The translations under genes were made by a program, and so were the position numbers. The notes below the pieces were generated by a model. It searched no databases and had not been told where the DNA came from. It saw only the letters and a list, made by a program, of their open reading frames with translations. From sequence record DRR723986_2974: a stretch of 20,000 nucleotides of DNA, one strand, 5' to 3'. Of this stretch, positions 650 through 16,395 are shown piece by piece (the first letter of the stretch is position 1; every line of letters begins with the position of its first letter).

Positions 650-838
650 ATGCCTATGATCAAAGTCTCGAAGCCGGGCACCCCCCTAATACCGGTTTAC
701 ATAAACACCGACCACATCATCACAGTCGAACAGGACGGAAACGGAGCCCGAATAGTTACAACCTCGAACAACGAGACAAGGGTAGATGTGATTAGAGTTC
801 TTGAAAGCCAAGCTCAGGTCGTGAGCCTCATCGGATAG
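650..838 (+). CDS. Small protein resembling the FlbD/SwrD family (PF06289-like), copy 1
   Basis: GAAGGA RBS before ATG 650. MIKV...VYINTDHIITVE...RIVTT...VLESQAQVVSLI matches the MIxL..(Y/V)LN.D.I..IE..T.IT...V.ES..E(V/I) pattern. Confidence 0.65.
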   Translation: MPMIKVSKPGTPLIPVYINTDHIITVEQDGNGARIVTTSNNETRVDVIRVLESQAQVVSLIG

Positions 839-879
839 GCCTAGGGAACTTCTGAAGCTTGGCTGGCGTTTGAAGAACC

Positions 880-1467
880 ATGGGCGCAACAATGATCGAC
901 GCACTGCTCGCAAAACTTGCTGATTTCATCAAAACAGCGCCAGTCGTTGCGTTGCCGCTCAGTTGCGCCAGCGGTCTCGCTATCTTCCTCAAGTCTATCG
1001 ATGTCATCCCGGGGATCAACGAAGAGGCTCTGGCTTACCTCTGGCTGTTCATGATCTTCATGGGCGCGGTCGCCGTTTCCGGTCTTCTCTCCTACACAAA
1101 GCCTGCCTTCGCATACCTTTACAAGCGCTATCAACAGCGTTCGGCGAGAATGAAGTTTCGTCAGCGCTTCATCGAAGATATCCCGCGCTTGACAGAAAGG
1201 GAGCGGACGATCTTCGGCTACCTGCGAGAAAAGAACCAGAAAACGTTTCAGGCACAACAGGACGGAGGACATGCAACTGCCCTAATCGCCAAGCGCTACA
1301 TTCATCTCATTGGAGTGCCTGGCCAAGCTTGCGATGTCTTCCGGATTCCGTTCAGTGTCCAGGACGATGTGTGGGAGATCATCACATCACGCCCCGAAGA
1401 CTTTCCTTACAAGCCCATAATACAAGGTAAAACCGAGCTTCTGCCATGGGTGGACAGAGCATGGTGA
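880..1467 (+). CDS. Superinfection-exclusion protein B (SieB)-like membrane protein
   Basis: Two N-terminal hydrophobic segments, a basic linker, then IPRLTERERTIFGYL...ATALIAKRYI, typical of SieB-family morons. Start may be ATG 892. Confidence 0.6.
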   Translation: MGATMIDALLAKLADFIKTAPVVALPLSCASGLAIFLKSIDVIPGINEEALAYLWLFMIFMGAVAVSGLLSYTKPAFAYLYKRYQQRSARMKFRQRFIEDIPRLTERERTIFGYLREKNQKTFQAQQDGGHATALIAKRYIHLIGVPGQACDVFRIPFSVQDDVWEIITSRPEDFPYKPIIQGKTELLPWVDRAW

Positions 1468-1511: not shown

Positions 1512-1877
1512 TCAAGAAATCCAATTGTCCGTGAGCCAAGTACGGCCTTTCTGCGTGATCTGAAGAGCTTTCCGTCCATGCTCGTCGACCGTAAGTTCCA
1601 GTAGTCCCGCAGCCACGATGCTTCCAGCGGCTTGAGGTGTCAGGGTGTGGTCGCAGCACAGAATGAACTGGTCCGCGCAGAATGGGAGGAACGGCTTCCA
1701 CTCCACTCCCCAGGGCAACCACCCAGTTGCCATCGCTGACATAATCGTCCGCAACTTCCCGCTCGGGCGTATCTCGATATCTTGCCTGGACGGATCTGTG
1801 GCCACTGCAAGGAACTTGTCCCAATTCACATCTGTTTCACTTTGGTATTTGCCGATCTGATCTGTCTGCGTACTCAT
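1512..1877 (-). CDS. Hypothetical protein with a winged-helix-like C-terminus
   Basis: GAGGT RBS; C-terminal AAGLLELT...ALQITQKGRTWL resembles a wHTH wing and final helix. Confidence 0.65.
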   Translation of the reverse strand: MSTQTDQIGKYQSETDVNWDKFLAVATDPSRQDIEIRPSGKLRTIMSAMATGWLPWGVEWKPFLPFCADQFILCCDHTLTPQAAGSIVAAGLLELTVDEHGRKALQITQKGRTWLTDNWIS

Positions 1878-4585: not shown

Positions 4586-4772
4586 TTCTCAATTCCTTCC
4601 TGAGTTGAGCGTTTTCTGCCTTCAGGGATTGGTTCTCCGCATGCAGCAAGCGTGTCCTGGCCCGCTCGTGCTGGAACTCGTCTTCAATGGTGGCTCCCGG
4701 CAGGGCGACCTTCTTCTGCCAGTGTGCGAGACGCTGAGTGGCCTCAAGTATGATTGCGACATGATCGGTCAT
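4290..4772 (-). CDS. Coiled-coil hypothetical protein; only about the first 65 aa look protein-like, the rest overlaps 4118..4585
   Basis: ATG overlaps the dnaB stop; heptad LHAENQSLKAENAQLRKEL. Confidence 0.55.
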   Translation of the reverse strand: MTDHVAIILEATQRLAHWQKKVALPGATIEDEFQHERARTRLLHAENQSLKAENAQLRKELRNAGRKDQGHNGGQSTLHGAGDRMSARERADAIFADLTSADQCRGADPEDDQPARQGSCLGGPLRSDAKRKQPVLSDPSDHRRDQRPVLSLPVMARKAG

Positions 4773-6133
4773 AGGAAGGTCTCCCCAACATCATCATCTG
4801 GATCAGCAAAACGGGTGCGCTCCGGTACCCAGAAAAGCTCTCCGCTCATCTCTCGGCCTCTGCGCCGCTTACCGGAGCGAACCCAGACCTTGCCGTCCCA
4901 TTTGTCGATTATCGCTTGGGAGTCTTTGCCGCCGTTTACCTCTGCCCGGATCGCGGGTTGGTGCATCAGGAGGACCCAAGAGGCGACTTCGCAGAGATCC
5001 CCACCACCGAAGAGATCGAACTTGCTGAAGGATTCCCCGGACTTGTCGGCATAAGTCTGCTTGACCTGCGCCAGCGCCATGATCGGGACGTCCAAGGCCT
5101 TCGCCATGTTGTCGAGCTTCGGAGCCGAAGCCATGACCTTGGCAGCTCCTTCCAGCGATCTCTTTTCCTCGGGGTCGACATGCTTGATCGTGTCGATGAT
5201 CACCAAGCCACAGGCACCTTGCCGGTGCTTGAAGGACTGAATCCGGCTTCTGATGCGCGAGATCCGCATGTCGTTGGTGTAGGTGACCTCGAACGGAACA
5301 CCCTTCAATCGCTCTTTCGCGTTGTAGAGAGCCTCCAGTTCACTGGGTTGGATCTCCCCTTTCTCCACCCGCGACGACGACACCGACGCCATACCGAGAA
5401 CTTCTCGGCCGGCGACATCCTCATGACGCATCTCGGCCTGGATCATCAGGACCGGAAGACGTTTCGCGAAGTGCATGCCGATCTGCATGGCGAGGGCCGA
5501 CTTGCCATGACCGGACGGGCCGCCAAGGATGCCGAGATCCCCGCGGTGGACCATGCCCATGATCTTGTCGAGTTCCTTCAGGCCCCAGTCGCTGCCCATG
5601 GGCTCGTTGCGCTGGTAAGTTTTCTCGACATCAGAGAAGAACCGACCTGCGGCCTCGTAGAGATCGATGGTGTCAGGTGCTCGATTGCTGGAGATCTTGT
5701 CGGTCAAGTTCTTGATTGCACGCAGGGCGATCTCCTCACCGGTCCCCTGCCCGTCGTTCAATTCCTTCTGTATCTCGCCGAGGGCTTCCCAGAGCTGCCG
5801 TTTCTGGGCTTCGTCGACGATGATGCTGGCGAGATCGTCCAACGAGATATCGGAACCAGCCATCCGCATGCAGGTTGTCAGGAACGTGGGGATCGACGGC
5901 ACCCCGAAGGTCATGGGATCGACCTTGATGCGTTCCCGTACTGCAGCAGGTGAAATCAGAGTTCCGGCCTTGACCAGATCAGCCATCGCCTGCCACGTCG
6001 CCCGGGTGAGCTGGTTGGTGAAAGCGTCTGGCGCGACCTGGGGGGCATATTCAACCGCAGACATCGGGCTTTGAAGGATCAGACCGATCCATTCCGCTTC
6101 ACGCTCCGGGATACCTTGGATTCCGATTGTCAT
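4769..6133 (-). CDS. dnaB: DnaB-like replicative helicase
   Basis: N-terminal EREAEWIGLIL...F...W domain, Walker A GGPSGHGKS, QAEM, Walker B LVIID, ALAQ, KRRRG. ATG 6133 overlaps the primase stop. Confidence 0.93.
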   Translation of the reverse strand: MTIGIQGIPEREAEWIGLILQSPMSAVEYAPQVAPDAFTNQLTRATWQAMADLVKAGTLISPAAVRERIKVDPMTFGVPSIPTFLTTCMRMAGSDISLDDLASIIVDEAQKRQLWEALGEIQKELNDGQGTGEEIALRAIKNLTDKISSNRAPDTIDLYEAAGRFFSDVEKTYQRNEPMGSDWGLKELDKIMGMVHRGDLGILGGPSGHGKSALAMQIGMHFAKRLPVLMIQAEMRHEDVAGREVLGMASVSSSRVEKGEIQPSELEALYNAKERLKGVPFEVTYTNDMRISRIRSRIQSFKHRQGACGLVIIDTIKHVDPEEKRSLEGAAKVMASAPKLDNMAKALDVPIMALAQVKQTYADKSGESFSKFDLFGGGDLCEVASWVLLMHQPAIRAEVNGGKDSQAIIDKWDGKVWVRSGKRRRGREMSGELFWVPERTRFADPDDDVGETFL

Positions 6134-7185
6134 GCAGCTATCTCCCCACCGACGCGCATGCCGCCGTCGTATGCAAGGTTCCATTGTTCGAGGTGATCGA
6201 GCCCGTCGTCGGGCTGGGGATCAATTGCGCAGGTCACGTGTTGGGCCCGCATCTTCTCCAGAAGGGTGTCGGCTGCCTTCTTGCCCGGAGGCGGTTGCCA
6301 GACACCGTTCTTGACCTGCCATTGATCGGGATCAGGGAAGATGAGGACCCGCTCGACACCGAATGGCGGCTGGAAGTTGACCATCCCAGAGGTCGCCATG
6401 GTCGGCCAGATCGGGATCTCCCGCCAGTTCAGGTTCCAGGCTCCGTAGCCGGTTTCGACACCTTCACAGGTCCCCACAGTATCTGTGGCAGGAAACAAGC
6501 GGATTGCCCCACCGGTCTCCATGCACGGACCGAGACCCTTTTTGACCTTTTTCCCGGTTTCATCCCGGTAATTGGTGCCATCCTTGTTGAGAAATATCCG
6601 CCAGACACCGACGGGGTTTCCATCTGGTCCGGTGACAAGGCAAACAACACAGGGGAGTTTCAGGTTCTTGGTGTAATAAGCTTGCGGGTGGAATCTAATC
6701 TGTACGGAGTGGAAACCATCCCAACCTTTCACCCGGTTCTTGAAGTATGTTTCTGCCAATGTCGCATTGGCAGGAACGGATGACTTCCAGAGGTCCATGG
6801 CAAGCTCCTCCCGAAAGACCTTACTTCTCCGGTCCTTCTCCTCGGCGTCCCTCTGACGCTGCCGATAGGCGCGCTTGTCCTCTTCGGACACCTCCAATTC
6901 GCCGCCGAGCGATTGAACAGCTTCCTGGAAGGTGTACCCCTTCACTTGCTGCAGAAATTCTATGACGTCGCCGCTGGCGCCGCAGCCGAAACACTTGAAT
7001 GTCTGCCGGTGATCATCGCATTTGAAAGACGGTGACTTCTCGCTATGGAACGGGCAGCAAGCCCAGAATTCCTGCTTTGAGGGTTTTGTCTTCTTGCGGT
7101 CCCACGTAACGAAGGCGCCGACCACGGTGGAAATCGAGTTTCGGTCCTTGAGCGTCTGGATTTGGGGATTAGTGAACTTTTTCAT
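6130..7185 (-). CDS. DNA primase (CHC2 zinc finger + TOPRIM)
   Basis: CPFHSEKSPSF...FKCFGCGASGDVIEF zinc-binding domain; CEGVETG and FPDPD TOPRIM motifs; GGAIRL. Confidence 0.93.
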   Translation of the reverse strand: MKKFTNPQIQTLKDRNSISTVVGAFVTWDRKKTKPSKQEFWACCPFHSEKSPSFKCDDHRQTFKCFGCGASGDVIEFLQQVKGYTFQEAVQSLGGELEVSEEDKRAYRQRQRDAEEKDRRSKVFREELAMDLWKSSVPANATLAETYFKNRVKGWDGFHSVQIRFHPQAYYTKNLKLPCVVCLVTGPDGNPVGVWRIFLNKDGTNYRDETGKKVKKGLGPCMETGGAIRLFPATDTVGTCEGVETGYGAWNLNWREIPIWPTMATSGMVNFQPPFGVERVLIFPDPDQWQVKNGVWQPPPGKKAADTLLEKMRAQHVTCAIDPQPDDGLDHLEQWNLAYDGGMRVGGEIAA

Positions 7186-8504
7186 CTATCCGCCTGTCGC
7201 TTGCCGCAAAACACGAGCTCTGGTTCTATGGTGCGGTAGTTGTTTTCTTTTTGGATGTTTATTTGATGCGCAAAACTGATGCGCCTTTGTCTGCAAACAC
7301 TAAGTCGACCTCCGTAGAGCGCAGCTCCCGCGCTGGAAGGGGGATTGTCTTGGTACTTGTCGGAGTTTTGTGCGGCGCCGTGTCTGTGAGCGTTCTGTTG
7401 AACACCGACTTCGGAATTCCTCGGCGGTCTCCGGAAGAGTGGGAGCTTATCTCCAATATCGCGCGCAATATTGGCCTCATTGTAATAGCTATTCCAGCGC
7501 TGGTTTTGGCTTGGAGCCGCACCCGTACTGCCACCCGACAAGCCGAAATCGCCAACAAGCAAGCCGAACTGTCCGAAAAAGGCTTGATCATCGATCGCTA
7601 CCAAAAGGGCGCGCAGATGCTGGAGAGCGAAGAGCTTTCTGTTCGCCTTGCGGGCATTTACGCATTGCGAGAGCTCGCAGTAAGTGACCCGGTCGAGACC
7701 CATATTCTCGTGCAGGAGCTTTTGTGCGATTTCATTCGGGAAAGGTCGAAATTGCGGGAACCAGACCTCTCTCGAGTAACGCGCTACCGTCCTACGCCTG
7801 CATTTGGCCCCTTCCCACCTGATTTGCATTGCGCTCGCGAAGTAATGACGAACTTGCGAATTGAAACTAATGAAGCGCGCCAAATCGAAAGTAGTCGCAA
7901 CTGGGTCCCCGATCTCCGCGGAGCAAACTTGTGTGAAGCAAATTTGAATAATTCTTTTCTTCGTGGCGCAAAGTTGTCGTATGCCAATCTGTCTAGAGCA
8001 TCCATCGATTTTGCGAAGCTCAGTGATGCGAAATTGTTTCGTGCAAACTTGTCTCGTGCAACTTTGCGCGGGGCAAAACTTACAAACGTAGATTTCTGGG
8101 GAGCGAAACTGACCGGCGCACTGCTTACCGCCGCTGACCTTAGCAATTCGAACCTGATGTACGCAGACTTGACTGACACTGATCTGAGTGAAGCGAACTT
8201 GACGGCTTCGAACCTGAGTGGTGCCAACGTGGTAACGGCAAAAGTTACTTCTACTGACACAACAGCTATTTGGGCTCTTGAATTTGAACCTGCTAAAAAG
8301 CTTCCGCCCGACTTTGCCGATACTATTGCCTACAGAAAACAGTATGAAATGTGGCCGGATTTCGTTGAACGCATCGTGTTTGAACACCCGGAGCTCCAGT
8401 GGTCTGAAGATTTCAAAAAGTTCGAAGAGCCTGAAACAATCTAACGTTTCAACAGGTCCTCTTGTTTGCCCGTCTCTCTGTGTGCAGTTGGCGTACACGC
8501 TCAT
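7182..8504 (-). other. 440-codon operon-strand ORF antisense to the pentapeptide moron, ATGA-coupled at both ends; product not protein-like
   Basis: ATG 8504-8502 overlaps the C5-MTase TGA; TGA 7184-7182 overlaps the primase ATG. Confidence 0.45.
7266..8444 (+). CDS. Membrane-anchored pentapeptide-repeat protein (moron)
   Basis: Two TM segments, DRYQKGAQMLES...VRLAGIYALRELA motif, many A(N/K/D)Lxx repeats; more AT-rich codon usage; opposite strand to the operon. Confidence 0.88.
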   Translation: MRKTDAPLSANTKSTSVERSSRAGRGIVLVLVGVLCGAVSVSVLLNTDFGIPRRSPEEWELISNIARNIGLIVIAIPALVLAWSRTRTATRQAEIANKQAELSEKGLIIDRYQKGAQMLESEELSVRLAGIYALRELAVSDPVETHILVQELLCDFIRERSKLREPDLSRVTRYRPTPAFGPFPPDLHCAREVMTNLRIETNEARQIESSRNWVPDLRGANLCEANLNNSFLRGAKLSYANLSRASIDFAKLSDAKLFRANLSRATLRGAKLTNVDFWGAKLTGALLTAADLSNSNLMYADLTDTDLSEANLTASNLSGANVVTAKVTSTDTTAIWALEFEPAKKLPPDFADTIAYRKQYEMWPDFVERIVFEHPELQWSEDFKKFEEPETI

Positions 8505-10627
8505 TCCGCCGCCTCCAGAACTTCAACTTTTGGGGCCGCGTCAGTCATAATTGCCCCAACACAAGCCTTCATTTTCGACACGGAAACGGCGTTCCCGATC
8601 TGCTTGATCTGCTCGGTCTTGGTGCCGGCGAATTCGTAGGCCTGTTCCTCGTCGGTGAAGCCCATGGCTGCTGCCAGTTCGTGAGGCTCCAGCATGCGGA
8701 ACAGGATGTCGTATTCCTCTGCAGGCTCGACGAGATCGACGTGACCGGTTGCGGCGATGGTGGGTGTCGGCTGATCAAGCCCGTGAACCCTTGGTGCCTG
8801 GCCCTTCCGTTCGCCATGCTGGGCGGTGATGAAAGCAAGTTCACCACGGTTGGCACCGGTAACAGTGGGAAGCGGATCTTCGACGCTTCCAACCCGATCC
8901 AGTCCTCCAGCGTGAGTGACAGGGAGTACGGCGGCGAACTCGCCACCTTTCGCCGTTGTCATGGTCGGTAAAGGGTCTGTCTCGATGTTGCGGGCCTGGG
9001 CCCCTCCGTTGGAGTTCGTAACCGGTACCACCATTCCGAACCGCCCCTTGGAGGTGACAGTAGGGAGCGGCTCCTCCTCGCTTGAACAGGTCTCTCCTGA
9101 GCCTGAGCCGTAGTAGGGAGAGATCAAGGCGTGAGACGAACCGTTGCCGCCGGTGGTCTGTGTGGGGATCGGCTCTTCGACAGGGCGTGGTGCCCCGCCT
9201 GAGGCTTGAGAGAGGACGAAGGGTTCGACGACTGCATGTCGTTCCTTCACCGTGATAGTCGACAGCGGCTCCTCAGGGCTATGGCACCATTCCGTGTTGC
9301 CGTAGTACGACATCACCAGAGCGTGCGATGCACCGGACCCATGGATGGCACCAAGTGGGTCCTCGACGCTGTTCGCTCTACGGCTATTCGGGTCCTTCTC
9401 TTTGGGATCGTTTCCATGGGCGACGGTAACCAGCATGGGACGTGCGCACCCTGGGTGATCGCTTGCCGCCGCTCCACCGGTCGTGATCGTCGGGAGAGGA
9501 TCTTCTGAGGACCGCGGTGCGCCACTGTTGTGCTGCGAAAGCACGATTGGCTCGGCCAACCAGACGCCGCCCTTGGTATCCAGTGTGGGGATGGGTTCGG
9601 TTGAGGCCGGTTTTGCCTGATTGCCCTTGCGCCCGTTCATGATGACAGGCTCGGCAACACCGATATGGCTGGCTTCTGAGGTCTGCGTCGGCAAAGGAGA
9701 ATCCGAATCCCGTGCCGTCGCCCCTTTCTTCATATTGACCACGACAGGCTGGGCGAGCCCGATATGCGTGCCGTTGGCCGCAATGGTCGGCAACGGGAGA
9801 TCCAGGCCACGCGCTGCCATGTGGTTGCGCAGGATCACCAGATAAGGCTCAGGCCATTTGAACTTCACCGCTCCGGCATAGATCCGAGCCATTGTCTTCG
9901 GGGCGAGATCCTTCTTCCGTCCAAAGATGGACTTCCCCTTGATGCCCCAGTCGATGATCTCCCGTGCCGGCCGCCAAGGCTTCTCGACAGCAAACATGTC
10001 CTTGTCGAGTTCTGCCGGTTTCCGGTGCGTCGGCATCGGCCAATGAACCTTCCGACCATCGGACCGCGCCATGAGGATGAAACGTTGCCGGGTGGTCGCA
10101 TCCCCGTAATCGGCTGCATTGAGCTTGCGCCATTCAGGTTCAAAACCGAGGCCACGGATGGTCTGGATCCAGGCATGGAAGTATTCGCCCTTGCGGGACT
10201 TCACCGGCTTGCCGGTCTGTGCGTTGACCGGTCCCCAGCTGATGAACTCCCAAACGTTCTCGATGATGATCCGCTTCACCCTGAGTTCGGTCAGCCAGGT
10301 GATGATGTGCCAGGGATCGGACCTTTGTTGATCGCTGGTCGGCTTGCCGCCCCGGGCAACAGAGTGGTGGGTGCAGGTCGGCGAGGCCATGAGGAGGTCG
10401 AGGTAACCCTCGGGGACAATGAGGTGCGGTCGCACCGTCGCGATGTCCTGCACGTAGTGCCTGGCCTCGGGGTGGTTCTTCTGATGGGTCTCAATTGCGG
10501 TCGGCCAATGATTGAGGCAGACCAGCTCCATTTCGAGGCCCATTTCCCTCAAGGCCCGCTGACAACCGGTTGAAGACCCCCCTGCCCCACAGAGCAGATC
10601 AGCGACAAGCATCTTGCGCTTCTTCAT
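8501..10627 (-). CDS. Orphan C5 DNA cytosine methyltransferase with a repeat-expanded variable region
   Basis: Motif I DLLCGAGG, IV SPTC, VI ENV, VIII RQR, IX RML...ELAAAMGF, X QIGNAV; AGAGGG RBS before ATG 10627. Confidence 0.93.
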   Translation of the reverse strand: MKKRKMLVADLLCGAGGSSTGCQRALREMGLEMELVCLNHWPTAIETHQKNHPEARHYVQDIATVRPHLIVPEGYLDLLMASPTCTHHSVARGGKPTSDQQRSDPWHIITWLTELRVKRIIIENVWEFISWGPVNAQTGKPVKSRKGEYFHAWIQTIRGLGFEPEWRKLNAADYGDATTRQRFILMARSDGRKVHWPMPTHRKPAELDKDMFAVEKPWRPAREIIDWGIKGKSIFGRKKDLAPKTMARIYAGAVKFKWPEPYLVILRNHMAARGLDLPLPTIAANGTHIGLAQPVVVNMKKGATARDSDSPLPTQTSEASHIGVAEPVIMNGRKGNQAKPASTEPIPTLDTKGGVWLAEPIVLSQHNSGAPRSSEDPLPTITTGGAAASDHPGCARPMLVTVAHGNDPKEKDPNSRRANSVEDPLGAIHGSGASHALVMSYYGNTEWCHSPEEPLSTITVKERHAVVEPFVLSQASGGAPRPVEEPIPTQTTGGNGSSHALISPYYGSGSGETCSSEEEPLPTVTSKGRFGMVVPVTNSNGGAQARNIETDPLPTMTTAKGGEFAAVLPVTHAGGLDRVGSVEDPLPTVTGANRGELAFITAQHGERKGQAPRVHGLDQPTPTIAATGHVDLVEPAEEYDILFRMLEPHELAAAMGFTDEEQAYEFAGTKTEQIKQIGNAVSVSKMKACVGAIMTDAAPKVEVLEAAE

Positions 10628-11592
10628 GCTGCTGCCCTCTTGCTGATGAAAAGGAAAGGCGGCAGGTTGTGGTTGGAACGGGGGGCAGTTGTGTGAAAAA
10701 TTCGTGGACTTTTGGGCTCGTTGCCCTCGTCGGCATACCAATCGCTGTCGTTATAGGATGGTCCGCCTACCTGCTTGTTAGAGGCGATCCGGATACGAAT
10801 TGCAGTGGTACTGCGATTTATTGTTATGCCTACACGTGGCAAACGTTGATCGCTGCAATTGTCGCGCTTTTGGGCGCCATTGCCACAGTCTGGCAGATAC
10901 GAAAGCAGATAGAACTCGAGGCACAGTATCGTAAGAGCGAACTGATCACCAAAACAATTTACGAGCTTAAGTGGTGCTCGGTCGCCCTGCGAAACATAGG
11001 CATCAATCGCAACAATCTTCAATTGCGCATTGATGCACTTGCCGCCGGGGTGCCCGCGGGACATCAACTCGAAGAAATCAGCATCGCTACACTTGATTTT
11101 CCAGACACAATCGACCCGGATGTGCACGGCTGGCTTCGACATGCCGTTGCTAGTCTTGAAAGCATAAACAACAATATTCGAACCTACAATGCAGCCATCG
11201 AATACGACGCCGATGAATTGGAGCAGTGGCAGGACGGAAATTTTGATATTGTCAATGGATTGAACGATCTTTGTGAAAGGATCAAAGATCATTTGATCTC
11301 TCCCCGAACCGACACACTGCGTAGCGCTGGCTGGTCCCAGAAAGGCATTGATGACCTGTTGCGTGCCGGACCTGCAGAGGAGGAATGAATACGTTCCGAC
11401 GCTGTCCTCGCTCCACTTCATCGGGTATCGCAGTCGCTCGTTTCTCAAGTCGACAAATTGTGAAGTAGTGATCGCCGGGTTATGGAATGCGCGGCAACAT
11501 TGATGACGCAATGTCTTTCGACTTTCTATTCTCGGTCCCAGCGCTTCGACTCTTCGGTGTTGCTTAATCACAAAAGCGTTTCGATTGATCAT
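10624..11592 (-). other. 322-codon operon-strand ORF antisense to the membrane-protein moron, ATGA-coupled at both ends
   Basis: ATG 11592-11590 overlaps the MT-A70 TGA; TGA 10626-10624 overlaps the C5-MTase ATG. Confidence 0.45.
10693..11388 (+). CDS. Hypothetical membrane protein (moron)
   Basis: GTG 10693; two TM segments including YTWQTLIAAIVALLGAIATVWQIRKQI, then a helical cytoplasmic domain; AT-richer codons. Confidence 0.75.
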   Translation: MKNSWTFGLVALVGIPIAVVIGWSAYLLVRGDPDTNCSGTAIYCYAYTWQTLIAAIVALLGAIATVWQIRKQIELEAQYRKSELITKTIYELKWCSVALRNIGINRNNLQLRIDALAAGVPAGHQLEEISIATLDFPDTIDPDVHGWLRHAVASLESINNNIRTYNAAIEYDADELEQWQDGNFDIVNGLNDLCERIKDHLISPRTDTLRSAGWSQKGIDDLLRAGPAEEE

Positions 11593-12182
11593 GCTGCCTC
11601 GAACTTCTCTGTTTCATTTCCCCAGACCGACCATTTCGGATCGGCAGGGCGTGAGCGGGCAAACAACTCCAGCACGTCAACCTCAGGGCCAACGTATTCC
11701 CGGACTCTGTCGCGGAAGATTTCAGGCTTGCGGGAGTGCTCCCGGCGATTGTCGATGATCAGGGCGGGAACAACGTTCTGGCGCATGGAGCGCCCCCGCT
11801 TCCCGATCAGACAGTATTCAAGGTTCTTCTGGGTGGTGAAGCCGGTGCCACGGGCGAAGTCCTGCTCAACCATGAACATCTTCGGCGCCTTCGGATTGAG
11901 CTTCACCCAATCGAAACCCATCCCCGATGGCTGGAACCCCCATGCCTTCATGATCGGGATGTGAGCCCCCAGAACCAGAAACGGGCCTGTGATCCACATA
12001 AAGAGCACGCAGTTATCTGCGACATGATCCTTGACCGGGAGAGCGGCGATATCTTCGAGGGACTGGCAGGGATAGTGTTTGATCGGGTTCCGACCTGGCT
12101 TGTTCTTGCTGTTCGATTTGAAGTGCCACGGCGGGTCGGCGCATATGCAGCCAAACTTTCCGTCGATGCCTGGGAGCCCCAT
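11589..12182 (-). CDS. MT-A70 family N6-adenine methyltransferase
   Basis: ADPPW, LFMW, WGF, WVK, EYCLIGKRG, EHSRKP, ELFAR, WGNE motifs; TGATG coupling with the upstream ORF. Confidence 0.93.
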   Translation of the reverse strand: MGLPGIDGKFGCICADPPWHFKSNSKNKPGRNPIKHYPCQSLEDIAALPVKDHVADNCVLFMWITGPFLVLGAHIPIMKAWGFQPSGMGFDWVKLNPKAPKMFMVEQDFARGTGFTTQKNLEYCLIGKRGRSMRQNVVPALIIDNRREHSRKPEIFRDRVREYVGPEVDVLELFARSRPADPKWSVWGNETEKFEAA

Positions 12183-12313
12183 CAATCGACCTCTCCGTTA
12201 TGTCCCTTACCAGCGCGCCAGAACGCACTAACCGTTGCGAGAACAGCCCAGAGTGAGAAGCCGGAGCCGATGGCGATCAGGAACTTGGCGAGAGCAGATA
12301 ATTCGCAACTCAT
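12182..12313 (-). CDS. 43-aa single-TM protein MSCELSALAKFLIAIGSGFSLWAVLATVSAFWRAGKGHNGEVD; not in the ORF track
   Basis: ATGA and TGATG coupling at its two ends; GGAG RBS. Confidence 0.7.
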   Translation of the reverse strand: MSCELSALAKFLIAIGSGFSLWAVLATVSAFWRAGKGHNGEVD

Positions 12314-13680: not shown

Positions 13681-14217
13681 TCAGGCAACCTCCTCCAGAT
13701 CGGACTGGTCCTCGTCCGTGTTGGCAGGATCGGCAGGCTTGCCTTCTTCCTTCTGGAATTCGGCCCGTGCCGCACAGCCGTCGTGGAAACCGCGAATCCA
13801 GGCCTGTCCGGCCTCGGTGCTGAGATCGTGCGGATTCTTGTCCTGGCCCTCGCCAATGACCCCGGTACCGAAGCCCTGCTCGTATGCGTTTTCGGTGATC
13901 GGCTGCGACTGCGGGGCGACCTCGAACATGTCGATCTGGCTGGCGCTAAGGGGTAGACCGAGAAGACGGAGGTAGCGGAACAGATGGGTGTACCGTTTGA
14001 TCGCTTCAGCGATCTCGCCCTTCTTCTTGATCTTCAGAGCTTCCTTGATCGCCCATTTGTCGAGACCGTTCGCCTCGGCCGATTCAAGGCGGGAGGTGAA
14101 GTCTCTATTGGAGGTATTCTTCCGTTTCTGGAGTTCCTCGACCTTGGAGAGCTGGAAGAGCACAAAGGCATCGTCCCGGCTGATATTATGTTTCGGGGAG
14201 TCGTTCCCTTTGCTCAT
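13681..14217 (-). CDS. GapR/DUF2312-like N-terminal domain fused to an Rmf/CrpP-like C-terminal domain
   Basis: KVEELQKRK...RLESAEANGLDKWAIKEALKIKK...YLRLLGL (GapR pattern) and AYEQGFGTGVIG...NPH...QAWIRGFHDG (RMF pattern). Confidence 0.7.
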   Translation of the reverse strand: MSKGNDSPKHNISRDDAFVLFQLSKVEELQKRKNTSNRDFTSRLESAEANGLDKWAIKEALKIKKKGEIAEAIKRYTHLFRYLRLLGLPLSASQIDMFEVAPQSQPITENAYEQGFGTGVIGEGQDKNPHDLSTEAGQAWIRGFHDGCAARAEFQKEEGKPADPANTDEDQSDLEEVA

Positions 14218-14741
14218 GCTGCTTCCTTTCTCAAAACGTGCTTCAAGCCACTGATAGCCTTCCGTTCACTGCGCGTGCCGTCCCCTTTGGAACGGTCCCG
14301 GTGATAGCTGCAGAACATCAGCCCAGGCGTTGCCGGCACCTTGTGACCGCAACAGGTCGGAAGACCGTCCTCGCCGTAGTCCTGATCGATCCAGCGGCAC
14401 TGGAATTGCTGAGTTTTGAGGAATGGGATCTTCAGGCTCTTCACCGGGGAAGGTTTCTCGACAGGCAGCGCAGCTACCGGAGCTGGCTTCGCGACCTTGT
14501 CGGACCTGCGAACGGTTGCCCGGGAACGGGGATTTGAGCGGGTCGCTGAAACTGTCGGCGCGGCCTTTACGCGGCTCTTGCGGACCTGGGCGGTTTCGCC
14601 ACGAGCCTCGCGGAGCCTCATCAGCTTTGCGCAAATCGCCGATCTAGAACGGCCCAGCTTCAACGCGATCTGACCAGCGGTCTTGCCTTCATCACGCATC
14701 CGCTCAAGGTCCTTGACCTCTTTGTCGGTCCACCCATTCAT
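14214..14741 (-). CDS. gcrA: GcrA-family cell-cycle regulator homolog
   Basis: WTDKEVKDL...EGKTAGQIALKLGRSRSAICAKLMRL N-domain, Ala/Pro linker, CRWI...CCG...FCSYH C-domain. Confidence 0.88.
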   Translation of the reverse strand: MNGWTDKEVKDLERMRDEGKTAGQIALKLGRSRSAICAKLMRLREARGETAQVRKSRVKAAPTVSATRSNPRSRATVRRSDKVAKPAPVAALPVEKPSPVKSLKIPFLKTQQFQCRWIDQDYGEDGLPTCCGHKVPATPGLMFCSYHRDRSKGDGTRSERKAISGLKHVLRKEAA

Positions 14742-15442: not shown

Positions 15443-15652
15443 TTAAGCGGCCTTTTGCTCGGCCTTCTCGAAGTCCTTCATCTTCGCGGTGATGCGATTG
15501 CGGACCTTGAGCCGGGGTTCCCTGCCTTCACGGAGCTGGAAGACAAAACGGGGGTCTCCCGCCATCTCCTTGCCGAAACGCGTCGGGGTCCAGCCTTCAT
15601 GGTCCTTGATGAAGGTCTCGATGGATTGCAGAAATGTTTGAATCTCGTTCAT
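15443..15652 (-). CDS. Cro-like regulator
   Basis: 69 aa, IETFI...TPTRFGKEMAGDPRFVFQLREGREPR; divergent from cI. Confidence 0.85.
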   Translation of the reverse strand: MNEIQTFLQSIETFIKDHEGWTPTRFGKEMAGDPRFVFQLREGREPRLKVRNRITAKMKDFEKAEQKAA

Positions 15653-15740
15653 GGCCTGACCTTAGTAGGACTATTACTATTGATCAAGCGGAAAATGCCT
15701 ATTTGCCTGACTATTGTCAACCGAGTAGTGATTTTCCTAT
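15653..15740. promoter_or_regulatory. OR-like switch: PR-like (minus) and PRM-like (plus) promoters with operators at 15665-80, 15687-702 and 15725-40
   Basis: Minus: TTGATC-N17-TAAGGT-N6-ATG(cro). Plus: TTGCCT-N17-TAGTGA-N7-ATG(cI). Operators GTAGGActatTACTAT, AGCGGAaaatGCCTAT, GTAGTGatttTCCTAT. Confidence 0.75.
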
Positions 15741-16395
15741 GGAAGATGACGCTGTAAGAAAACGCATCCGCGAGCTGATTTCCGAGAAGGGAACGGACAT
15801 GGCTACCGCCTCAAAGGTGATCGGCCGAAGCCATTCCTATATCCAGCAATTCCTTGAACGAGGCATCCCGCGAAAGCTCAAGGAAGGCGACCGCGCCAAG
15901 CTTGCAGAGTTCTTTGGCGTCGAAGAAACAGAGCTCGGTGGACCAGCTCGTAAATCAGAACCGAAAAAGGCCAGTTCCTCCGGGTTCAAGCTCGTTCCTG
16001 AATACGATGTTCACGTATCTGCCGGCGGTGGCGCCCTTGTTGCCGAAGAATCGGAGGTCAGCCGCTGGCCCTTCAATCCGGAATACCTCTCCAACTTCCT
16101 GGGCCTTGCTCGCGCAAACCTCGCAATCGTTGAGGTCCGCGGCGATTCCATGGAGCCGACGTTGATCTCTGGCGATCGGGTTCTCGTCAATATGTCTGAC
16201 CGTCAGATCAGCCAATCCGGCATTTTCGTGCTGTTCGATGGTGGCGGAACTGTCGTGAAGCGCGTCGACAAGCGTATTGGTGATGATGTGACTGTCACCC
16301 TGATTTCAGACAATCCGATCCATGACCGGTACCAGGTCGACATCGACGACATCAATGTGGTTGGCCGTGTGGTCTGGGTTGCGCGTAGACTTTGA
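15739..16395 (+). CDS. cI: CI-like repressor (HTH + S24 peptidase)
   Basis: N-terminal HTH (MATASKVIGRSHSYIQQFL), SAGGG cleavage region, VRGDSMEP catalytic Ser, VVKR catalytic Lys, VVGRVVW. Confidence 0.93.
   Translation: MEDDAVRKRIRELISEKGTDMATASKVIGRSHSYIQQFLERGIPRKLKEGDRAKLAEFFGVEETELGGPARKSEPKKASSSGFKLVPEYDVHVSAGGGALVAEESEVSRWPFNPEYLSNFLGLARANLAIVEVRGDSMEPTLISGDRVLVNMSDRQISQSGIFVLFDGGGTVVKRVDKRIGDDVTVTLISDNPIHDRYQVDIDDINVVGRVVWVARRL

Follow-up and report, generated by a model that had tools for sequence, protein, structure and literature searches.

Stop-free coupled reading frames that may carry ribosomes across antisense accessory genes in a prophage early operon

We examined a 20,000-nucleotide stretch of DNA from sequence record DRR723986_2974 (the window), in which two accessory genes of a prophage, here called cargo 1 and cargo 2, lie antisense within a minus-strand early/replication operon and are each spanned on the operon strand by a single open reading frame (ORF) free of stop codons. 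Cargo 1 occupies a slot between the genes for a C5 cytosine DNA methyltransferase (C5 methylase) and a primase (slot 1), cargo 2 a slot between an MT-A70 family methyltransferase gene and the C5 methylase gene (slot 2), and both spanning ORFs overlap their operon neighbors by ATGA at either end. We consider it likely that these minus-strand frames are relay, or bridge, ORFs whose peptide is irrelevant and whose openness is under selection, such that ribosomes stay on the operon mRNA. The lack of stops in one frame only, the ends locked into the neighbors' stop and start codons, and the Shine-Dalgarno-like motifs ahead of them together suggest that the operon RNA is translated straight across the cargo. 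A reading of the sequence alone had proposed that antisense accessory genes are selected here to keep a coupled opposite frame open, and had named as checks a synonymous-codon null, a comparison of homologs inside and outside operons, and a survey of other cargo at the same two sites; codon nulls, homologs, and recurrence in related loci all lend support to that proposal.

Two coupled ORFs span the antisense cargo

The features on which the argument turns are as follows:

7182..8504, minus strand: bridge (relay) ORF 1, 440 codons; ATG within the C5 methylase stop, TGA within the primase start
10624..11592, minus strand: bridge (relay) ORF 2, 322 codons; ATG within the MT-A70 stop, TGA within the C5 methylase start
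8501..8504, minus strand: ATGA junction of C5 methylase stop and bridge 1 start, with GGAGG 9-13 nucleotides (nt) upstream
7182..7185, minus strand: ATGA junction of bridge 1 stop and primase start
11589..11592, minus strand: ATGA junction of MT-A70 stop and bridge 2 start, with GAGG upstream
10624..10627, minus strand: ATGA junction of bridge 2 stop and C5 methylase start
11389..11592, minus strand: part of bridge 2 outside the cargo, 68 codons, stop-free
7251..8444, plus strand: cargo 1, a pentapeptide-repeat protein (Pfam Pentapeptide, 1.4e-26); start at TTG 7251 or ATG 7266
10693..11388, plus strand: cargo 2, a 231-amino-acid (aa) protein; probable GTG start at 10693, read from the sequence

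An ORF listing and the junction letters reproduced the 440- and 322-codon bridges and the four exact ATGA overlaps of the sequence-only reading, as well as the codon alignment it had described between the bridges and the plus-strand ORFs (7251..8444 and 10570..11388, with equal coordinates modulo 3). With ATGA at all four ends, both bridges have the form of translationally coupled operon ORFs on the start side and on the stop side, and a Shine-Dalgarno-like GGAGG or GAGG lies 8-13 nt ahead of each bridge start, within the terminal part of the preceding gene. Openness is confined to one frame: stops in operon-strand frames 0, +1, and +2 number 0, 8, and 21 over bridge 1 and 0, 14, and 12 over bridge 2. 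The bridge codons outside the cargo are all open too, with 42 of them in bridge 1 (P ~0.16) and 90 in bridge 2 (P ~0.02) under local composition.

We regard the plus strand as the coding strand of slot 1, a matter that the Pfam match of cargo 1 settles: the protein scores 92.1 bits against PF00805, where the gathering cut-off is 20.2 (E 1.4e-26), and belongs to that family. It also matches seven PHROG families and by eye has two hydrophobic N-terminal stretches; the codon-usage coding score of bridge 1 is ~0. For cargo 2, GTG 10693 is most likely the start, rather than TTG 10570, and in its protein, judged by eye, two hydrophobic stretches precede a long polar domain, giving it a membrane-anchored look. 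A single homolog, P0001, shares 39% identity with it (E 6.7e-30; 1.9e-42 by BLASTP). Cargo 2 reaches an Atlas recognition of 2444 with a best match of 0.96, against 986 and 0.76 for bridge 2, which is not protein-like by this measure, and searches of Pfam and PHROG gave no match for either window bridge.

Searches of Pfam, PHROG, and PADLOC returned no family for cargo 2, and the PADLOC models of known anti-phage defense returned 0 families for either cargo protein. Relaxed Pfam, PADLOC, and Atlas searches with cargo 2 gave weak leads only, to Atlas clusters with a retron Ec48 effector or DUF4760 at 0.81. A relationship between cargo 2 and the cargo of a related locus (L046) was considered and dropped, as BLASTP shows no similarity. 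No close relatives of the two cargo proteins were found in viral contigs, nor did tblastn of cargo and bridges find any in the three methylase-anchored locus sets introduced below. Both genes are lower in G+C than their surroundings (0.50-0.52 versus 0.56-0.60), and a consensus scan around them gave 1 promoter-like site against 1.8 expected and 4 terminator-like sites against 5.5 expected.

Stop depletion exceeds what codon usage predicts

The codon-aligned antisense frame can be closed solely by TTA, CTA, or TCA in the sense gene. Cargo 1 has none of these among 48 Leu and 31 Ser codons, at a third-position G+C content (GC3) of 0.53, and cargo 2 has none within 10693..11388; the lone TCA of its longer ORF version, at 10624-10626, is the stop codon of bridge 2. 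These counts agree with the absence of the three codons noted from the sequence alone, and its internal controls also hold, the TM2 gene having TTA 2, CTA 1, and TCA 1 and the SieB-like gene CTA 1 and TCA 1.

Within the two window cargo genes pooled, A-ending codons make up 60 of 236 in the GCN, CCN, ACN, GGN, GTN, and CGN boxes and 0 of 71 in TCN plus CTN (Fisher p=2.6e-8). Across nine long embedded cargo genes the corresponding counts are 251/1304 and 0/404 (p=8e-33), while three non-embedded pentapeptide homologs show no depletion (63/526 versus 16/199, p=0.14). With window genes, related loci, and homologs as codon-usage references, the probability that the antisense frame is open by synonymous codon choice comes out low:

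Codon table of 16 window genes: cargo 1, 2.5e-3; cargo 2, 0.092
Codon table of 5 low-GC window genes: cargo 1, 2.5e-4; cargo 2, 0.029
Codon table of 4 non-embedded homologs: cargo 1, 6.5e-4; cargo 2, 0.038

Among 568 real operon-strand genes of related loci, antisense stops occur at 2.06 per 100 codons where GC3 is <0.6 and at 1.28 where it is 0.6-0.7. From this baseline cargo 1 should have 8.2 stops and cargo 2 should have 4.8 (GC3 0.52-0.53), and none are observed. The sequence-only reading had cautioned that this antisense register is the one most often open by chance in GC-rich DNA. The caution stands as to the register, since the aligned frame is fully open in 53% of the real genes of these loci at 60-100 codons and in 7% at ≥400 codons, but it does not suffice for cargo of 360-440 codons at GC3 0.53-0.70; nor is the openness of the window cargo that expected from codon usage, length, and G+C. 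Over 19 bridges with 5694 codons in total, the bridge frame has 0 stops and the other two operon-strand frames have 163 and 248, and because the depletion is limited to one frame, its reader could hardly be anything other than the ribosome.

Homologs of the pentapeptide gene are open only where embedded

A DNA similarity search of 132 genomes of one family, made without regard to openness, retrieved full-length homologs of the pentapeptide gene in six genomes at 34-50% identity; since these were picked by similarity, the comparison is free of ascertainment. In two loci, tandem pairs of homologs lie antisense in another coupled phage operon, with a single ORF of 808 codons (L081) or 933 codons (L082) running across both. 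All four embedded homologs have 0 antisense stops at GC3 0.58-0.70 and with 47-60 Leu and 24-31 Ser codons each, for which the probability of an open frame is 1e-4 to 7e-3 per gene. The non-embedded homologs, one co-directional (L080) and three at strand switches (L083, L084, and L085, of which L083 and L084 are near-copies with 86% identity), have 2, 10, 10, and 9 antisense stops, respectively. The proposed comparison of homologs in and out of operons thus gave 0 TTA, CTA, and TCA codons in the former and 2-10 in the latter.

The L081 and L082 loci also carry a 527-codon ORF across a DUF6161 gene and a 1045-codon ORF across two genes of ~377 codons, one of them pentapeptide-like (the third such gene). 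None of the seven cargo genes of these loci, at GC3 0.56-0.70, contains TTA, CTA, or TCA. Neighboring genes include GcrA-like, HNH, NusG-like, and large terminase genes. The NusG-domain paralogs (L081 2414-3019 and L082 3787-4395, both minus strand; Pfam NusG 5.9e-12 and 1.7e-9) lie downstream of the giant bridges in the same operons, that of L082 upstream of the large terminase gene, and a NusG paralog carried by a phage may be relevant to Rho, and to how these phages couple transcription with translation. In a tree of ten pentapeptide homologs, which is poorly resolved and gives no order of events, embedded and non-embedded genes do not form separate clades.

Bridged cargo recurs at related loci

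Using the C5 methylase as an anchor blind to the feature, we collected 54 genome loci, 79 metagenome loci, and 80 viral contigs. Their operons are chained by 4-nt NTGA overlaps at 420 of 592 junctions in the genome loci with the window, 348 of 515 in the metagenome loci, and 514 of 722 in the viral contigs. At one locus (L028) the MT-A70 and C5 methylase genes overlap directly with no cargo between them, which identifies slot 2 of the window as an insertion, and a co-directional gene occupies the slot before the primase. In all, ~35 bridge ORFs were seen in three collections, 20 of them over Pfam-verified antisense cargo. The survey of other cargo proposed from the sequence alone found antisense genes beside the C5 methylase of related prophages again spanned by coupled ORFs:

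L013 8950-9579, minus strand: HigB (2.4e-15) and a helix-turn-helix (HTH) antitoxin under one coupled 239-codon ORF between C5 methylase and primase
L010 4596-9432 (G003:C17 ~241.5-246.3 kb): six DUF982 genes under four ORFs, all cargo antisense
L054: DUF982, two ORFs
L128 (two) and L157: DUF982
L198 (two), L216 (two ORFs, three genes), and L248: DUF982
L004, L016, L032, L046, L054 6339..7001, L118 (two cargo genes), L123, and L139: cargo without a family, proteins convincing by eye
L013 6069..6998, L204 (two), L221, and L239 (two): cargo without a family, proteins convincing by eye

Among the bridges tabulated, 11 of 16 have NTGA at both ends. Where tandem cargo genes lie under one bridge, they share one register in all cases and their spacers are open too.

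No other antisense cargo is as frequent in these prophage operons as DUF982, a domain of unknown function with 18 and 15 copies in all in the two host genomes. Of the copies located elsewhere in two genomes, 9 of 24 are open, as are 6 of 6 listed prophage copies. Another recurrent architecture, judged by eye, has a pair of hydrophobic stretches ahead of a long polar domain and is always encoded antisense next to the C5 methylase (window 10693-11388, L046 8890-9627, L054 6360-6950, L123 4198-4947, L139 1018-1587, L013 6087-6935, L204 5935-6759, L221 3213-3977, and L239 3303-3935). These proteins with two putative transmembrane stretches fall into two loose similarity groups, and cargo 2 of the window is in neither; the L046 cargo has a weak PADLOC "gop" match (1.8e-5).

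A census anchored on the methylase in 130 distinct loci with a complete methylase gave the following neighbors:

Upstream: co-directional 89; flagged as a possible bridge 20; gap or other 11; antisense and unbridged 2; no flank 8
Downstream: co-directional 100; flagged as a possible bridge 9; gap or other 5; antisense and unbridged 3; no flank 13

Curation with Pfam and by eye left 15 accepted bridges, 12 rejected flags (real operon-strand genes), and 2 ambiguous cases. Antisense neighbors of the methylase are accordingly bridged 15 times and unbridged 5 times, the latter including a host ThuA gene and an ISL3 transposase, where chance, as an openness of 0.07-0.5 multiplied by two independent 1-in-3 frame conditions, would account for at most a few percent. 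A strand classifier based on codon-usage log-odds and trained on the loci was also tried and set aside as too weak for low-GC cargo, being ambiguous in slot 2 and raising many false flags, among them these operon-strand genes:

L142 Dam; L152 DUF1376; L202 and L134 PP-binding; L204 HNH; L268 and L012 DUF968; L234 HTH

Exchange at the two slots can be seen in a close prophage relative represented by contigs from runs X1 and X2; in the stretches that it shares with the window, ~2 to 13 letters per 100 are different. In it, window positions 10639..11588 are swapped for 1362 other letters and 7166..8589 for 954, and these break points, at or close to the bridge ends, indicate that both slots have been exchanged there. 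The methylase of this relative lacks or replaces 8716-8838. In phage records, matches were limited to the methylase part, in 4 records, and the Bradyrhizobium phage region is entirely co-directional.

Openness rather than peptide sequence appears to be maintained

Between embedded pentapeptide homologs, identity at four-fold sites is 0.25-0.45 (saturated) and identity of the antisense-frame translation 0.15-0.28, neither above the values for non-embedded or mixed pairs. The bridges lack the conservation of their own protein by which an overlapping protein-coding gene would be recognized: no accepted bridge tested matched Pfam, 0 of 11 matched PHROG, and exact look-up in a protein collection found 0 of 7 bridges and did find the L046 cargo. 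Saturated synonymous sites together with unconserved bridge peptides suggest that openness alone is selected, and since the bridges run over unrelated cargo, they have nothing in common but openness and coupling. The bridge peptide thus appears free to change, and only a stop-free frame, its register, and its coupling at either end appear to be maintained.

Proposed mechanism and points against it

In the mechanism that we propose, the early/replication operon would be read as a single chain of stop-start overlaps, between two genes of which an accessory gene, with its own orientation and probably expressed in the lysogen, would have been placed antisense. Ribosomes finishing at the upstream TGA would restart on the overlapping ATG of the bridge, cross the antisense of the cargo and its flanks, and finish at a TGA overlapping the start codon (ATG) of the operon gene that follows. 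The cargo would be purged of TTA, CTA, and TCA, with cargo genes and spacers kept in one codon register. One likely benefit would be that no long ribosome-free antisense RNA is left open to Rho-dependent termination or decay; another would be unbroken termination-reinitiation coupling down to the primase/DnaB and methylase genes. The anatomy, the stop depletion confined to one frame, its recurrence, and the unconstrained peptide are shown by the sequences; that the bridge frame is translated, and which benefit drives selection, we infer. In more general form, we hold it to be reasonably probable that any DNA inserted into a fully stop-start-chained early operon of a temperate phage must stay translatable, with antisense genes recoded at synonymous sites and kept in register, relay ORFs of up to more than 1000 codons, and cargo and relay moving together as cassettes between conserved junctions.

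Several observations weigh against the relay interpretation. It gives no account of how cargo with ~8 antisense stops turns fully open. The coding strand of slot 2 is assigned from few lines of evidence, namely one homolog, two hydrophobic stretches seen by eye, and the Atlas scores, and the codon-usage score there is slightly higher for the minus-strand ORF (0.057 versus 0.028 per codon). Individual DUF982 and HigBA cases are weak, since chance alone leaves the aligned frame open in 36-53% of real genes of 60-150 codons. Curation was partly by eye, and bridges without Pfam-verified cargo were accepted by eye. Some junctions are loose: the L081 bridge 7069..8652 begins 61 nt past the upstream gene, and the L054 bridge 8015..8653 ends in CTGA. 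The non-embedded L080 homolog is almost open, with just 2 antisense stops. Both of these stops in L080 (5885-7213, plus strand) are CTA, with no TTA or TCA, and the tree places the gene with an embedded homolog (support 92/96); it might be a gene that has recently left an embedded position.

Some antisense genes, which may or may not lie inside an operon, are moreover unbridged. They include the SieB-like gene of the window (880..1467), genes at L014 5150-6469, L052 4485-5159, L254, L258, and L272, and a gene of ~134-142 aa at L001 11801-12220, L010 13513-13932, L016 11855-12283, and L033 11813-12217 (all minus strand). This last gene has no Pfam family; on one side of it the early chain ends, and on the other lie genes that are putatively for packaging, as judged by position only. 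Finally, a crude gene caller was used for an automatic count of "antisense islands", which showed no enrichment in the discovery set, where 10 of 77 islands and 124 of 444 control genes were spanned; the further sets gave 7/39 versus 75/260 in controls (metagenome) and 1/9 versus 1/10. We consider this census unreliable because the caller missed both window bridges and because its islands include host regions, shadow ORFs, and the borders of operons.

Alternative explanations

It is conceivable that the bridges are true protein-coding genes, overlapping the cargo in antisense and with functional products, as proposed for gene 10 of phage Fc02 opposite olg1/olg2. Long antisense ORFs that are translated and selected have been reported (PMC8850804, PMC9927249), in Fc02 the whole of gene 10, part of the early lytic operon, is overlapped by a lysogeny transcript, with both said to give exclusion (PMC9936078), and the Shine-Dalgarno-like motifs at the bridge starts would suit such genes. 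We nevertheless judge this explanation very unlikely in view of the absent Pfam and PHROG matches, the Atlas recognition of 986 for bridge 2 against 2444 for its cargo, the absence of all seven bridges tried from a protein collection that contains the L046 cargo, and the fact that, where the cargo is homologous, the peptides of the bridges resemble one another no more than do the antisense frames of non-embedded homologs, with cargo-synonymous sites saturated; over unrelated cargo, openness and coupling are the sole common traits. It would be more surprising still if chance and history had produced the arrangement, with an aligned frame that is often open in GC-rich DNA and ATGA motifs that are relics of the flanking genes' translation-initiation regions. 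Short genes are indeed often open by chance, NTGA is the default at ~70% of junctions and so would come with the neighbors, the crude automatic census found no enrichment, and the window cases were chosen for being open. Chance is hard to reconcile, however, with the stops expected in the window cargo at its GC3, with the within-gene control (p=2.6e-8), with L081/L082 homologs that were found by similarity and have no stops against 9-10 in non-embedded homologs, with ORFs of 808, 933, and 1045 codons, with spacers and flanks that are open and in register, or with 15 bridged methylase neighbors against 5 unbridged where a few percent is predicted, and we rate it as highly improbable.

Translation across the cargo could also be needed for another reason, such as blocking RNase III pairing, shielding the RNA from RNase E, or helping RNA polymerase in head-on conflicts. 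The same sequence evidence fits these benefits, which it does not tell apart, and the openness of the entire stretch, rather than of a short ORF ahead of the next gene, points to a need along the whole cargo. No finding contradicts this explanation, but the exact downstream overlaps (NTGA at both ends in 11 of 16) fit reinitiation coupling as at least part of the benefit, and Rho termination of untranslated and antisense transcripts is established (PMC11551753, PMC5540618, PMC13323073); we see it as improbable, though to be taken seriously. Relay ORFs that keep ribosomes on the operon mRNA remain the reading that we prefer.

Relation to known systems

The ATGA stop-start overlap is a familiar means of translational coupling in bacterial and phage operons. 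The bridges resemble it in that both ends are 4-nt NTGA overlaps like ~70% of the junctions of these operons, and differ in that a bridge would encode no protein of its own and extends, over 100 to 1045 codons, antisense through a different gene. Morons are prophage accessory genes expressed from their own signals. The window cargo genes agree with them as accessory genes amid conserved phage genes, here between two conserved operon genes, that differ or are absent in close relatives and deviate in composition with a lower G+C, whereas promoter and terminator motifs at the window cargo do not exceed chance and the cargo is antisense and spanned by an ORF. In leader and upstream ORFs it is the act of translation that matters and not the product; in bridges, likewise, translation would be the function and the peptide sequence free. 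Leader ORFs are short and regulatory, however, and bridges are up to 1045 codons long, intergenic, and constrain the codons of the opposite strand.

Ribosome-free antisense RNA of 0.3-3 kb in an operon would be a classic Rho substrate, and a stop-free frame would remove it. Known remedies against Rho are antiterminators (N, Q, and RfaH-type NusG paralogs) or purine bias; here, by contrast, the remedy would be the recoding of a gene on the opposite strand. That Rho silences untranslated and antisense RNA has been described (PMC11551753, PMC5540618, PMC13323073). Shadow ORFs and antisense overlapping genes in Pseudomonas aeruginosa and enterohemorrhagic Escherichia coli (PMC8850804, PMC9927249, bioRxiv 724807) are, like the two window bridges, long codon-aligned ORFs antisense to known genes. 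They are discussed as protein-coding or as chance products, whereas in bridges openness would be selected, the peptide is not conserved, and the ORF is coupled to both neighbors. In the temperate phage Fc02 (PMC9936078), genes of the lysogeny transcript are likewise fully antisense to an early lytic operon gene. Compared by description only, it differs in being a transposable phage of a Pseudomonas host, in the exclusion activity reported for gene 10, and in that the part of the paper at hand treats both strands as functional and does not raise the idea of a relay frame.

A full-text search of the literature returned work on antisense overlapping genes and on Rho, together with Fc02 as the one phage case, and no description of frames kept open merely to ferry ribosomes across antisense genes. 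Relay frames would thus be related to translational coupling, to anti-polarity, and to translated non-genic ORFs, while the arrangement itself appears to be new.

The operon and other genes of the window

The minus-strand early/replication operon spans ~15650 -> 2719 of the window, and the genes around the bridges are:

15634..16395, plus strand: S24-peptidase repressor-like gene, divergent from the operon
11589..12185, minus strand: MT-A70 family methyltransferase (Pfam MT-A70 6.3e-26), upstream of bridge 2
8501..10627, minus strand: C5 cytosine DNA methyltransferase, 708 aa (Pfam DNA_methylase 1.2e-25), between both cargo slots
6130..7185, minus strand: primase with CHC2 Zn-ribbon, DUF7146, and Toprim (Pfam primase Zn-ribbon 1.8e-26), downstream of bridge 1
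4769..6184, minus strand: DnaB-like helicase (Pfam DnaB_C 9.2e-33), after the primase

The early-operon genes at 13681-14217 and 14214-14741 (minus strand) encode a protein with a stretch like RMF (ribosome modulation factor; 1.4e-6) and a GcrA-like cell-cycle regulator (1.2e-11), and the L081 bridge region is also headed by a GcrA-like gene. The middle of the C5 methylase (8501-10627) looks by eye like a run of ~10 degenerate repeats, each 35-45 residues long and bearing a motif that resembles (E/D)(D/E)PLPT; Pfam coverage of the protein is limited to the catalytic part at the N terminus and a short piece at the C terminus, and the repeat-like region differs in length between homologs. The SieB-like gene (880-1467, plus strand) is flanked by minus-strand ORFs at 686..913 and 1512..1877 with no open frame across it, and a gap of ~800 bases separates it from the last coupled operon gene (2719).

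Implications

If relay frames are what they appear to be, synonymous codon choice in some prophage genes would be shaped by the readability of the opposite strand, a new form of selection on synonymous sites, and there would be a class of ORFs selected only for openness that provides a standing pool of translated non-genic sequence. This would link the architecture of an operon to where and how prophages carry lysogeny, defense, or toxin-antitoxin genes. For gene callers this would be a systematic trap; annotation pipelines would pick one of the two, bridge or cargo, and misjudge both. Very long ORFs annotated as "hypothetical" in alphaproteobacterial prophages may be relay frames, and anyone engineering phages of this kind would have to keep the frame. 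Finally, these operons could offer a natural system for measuring how much ribosome-free RNA an operon tolerates and whether translated non-genic frames yield new proteins.

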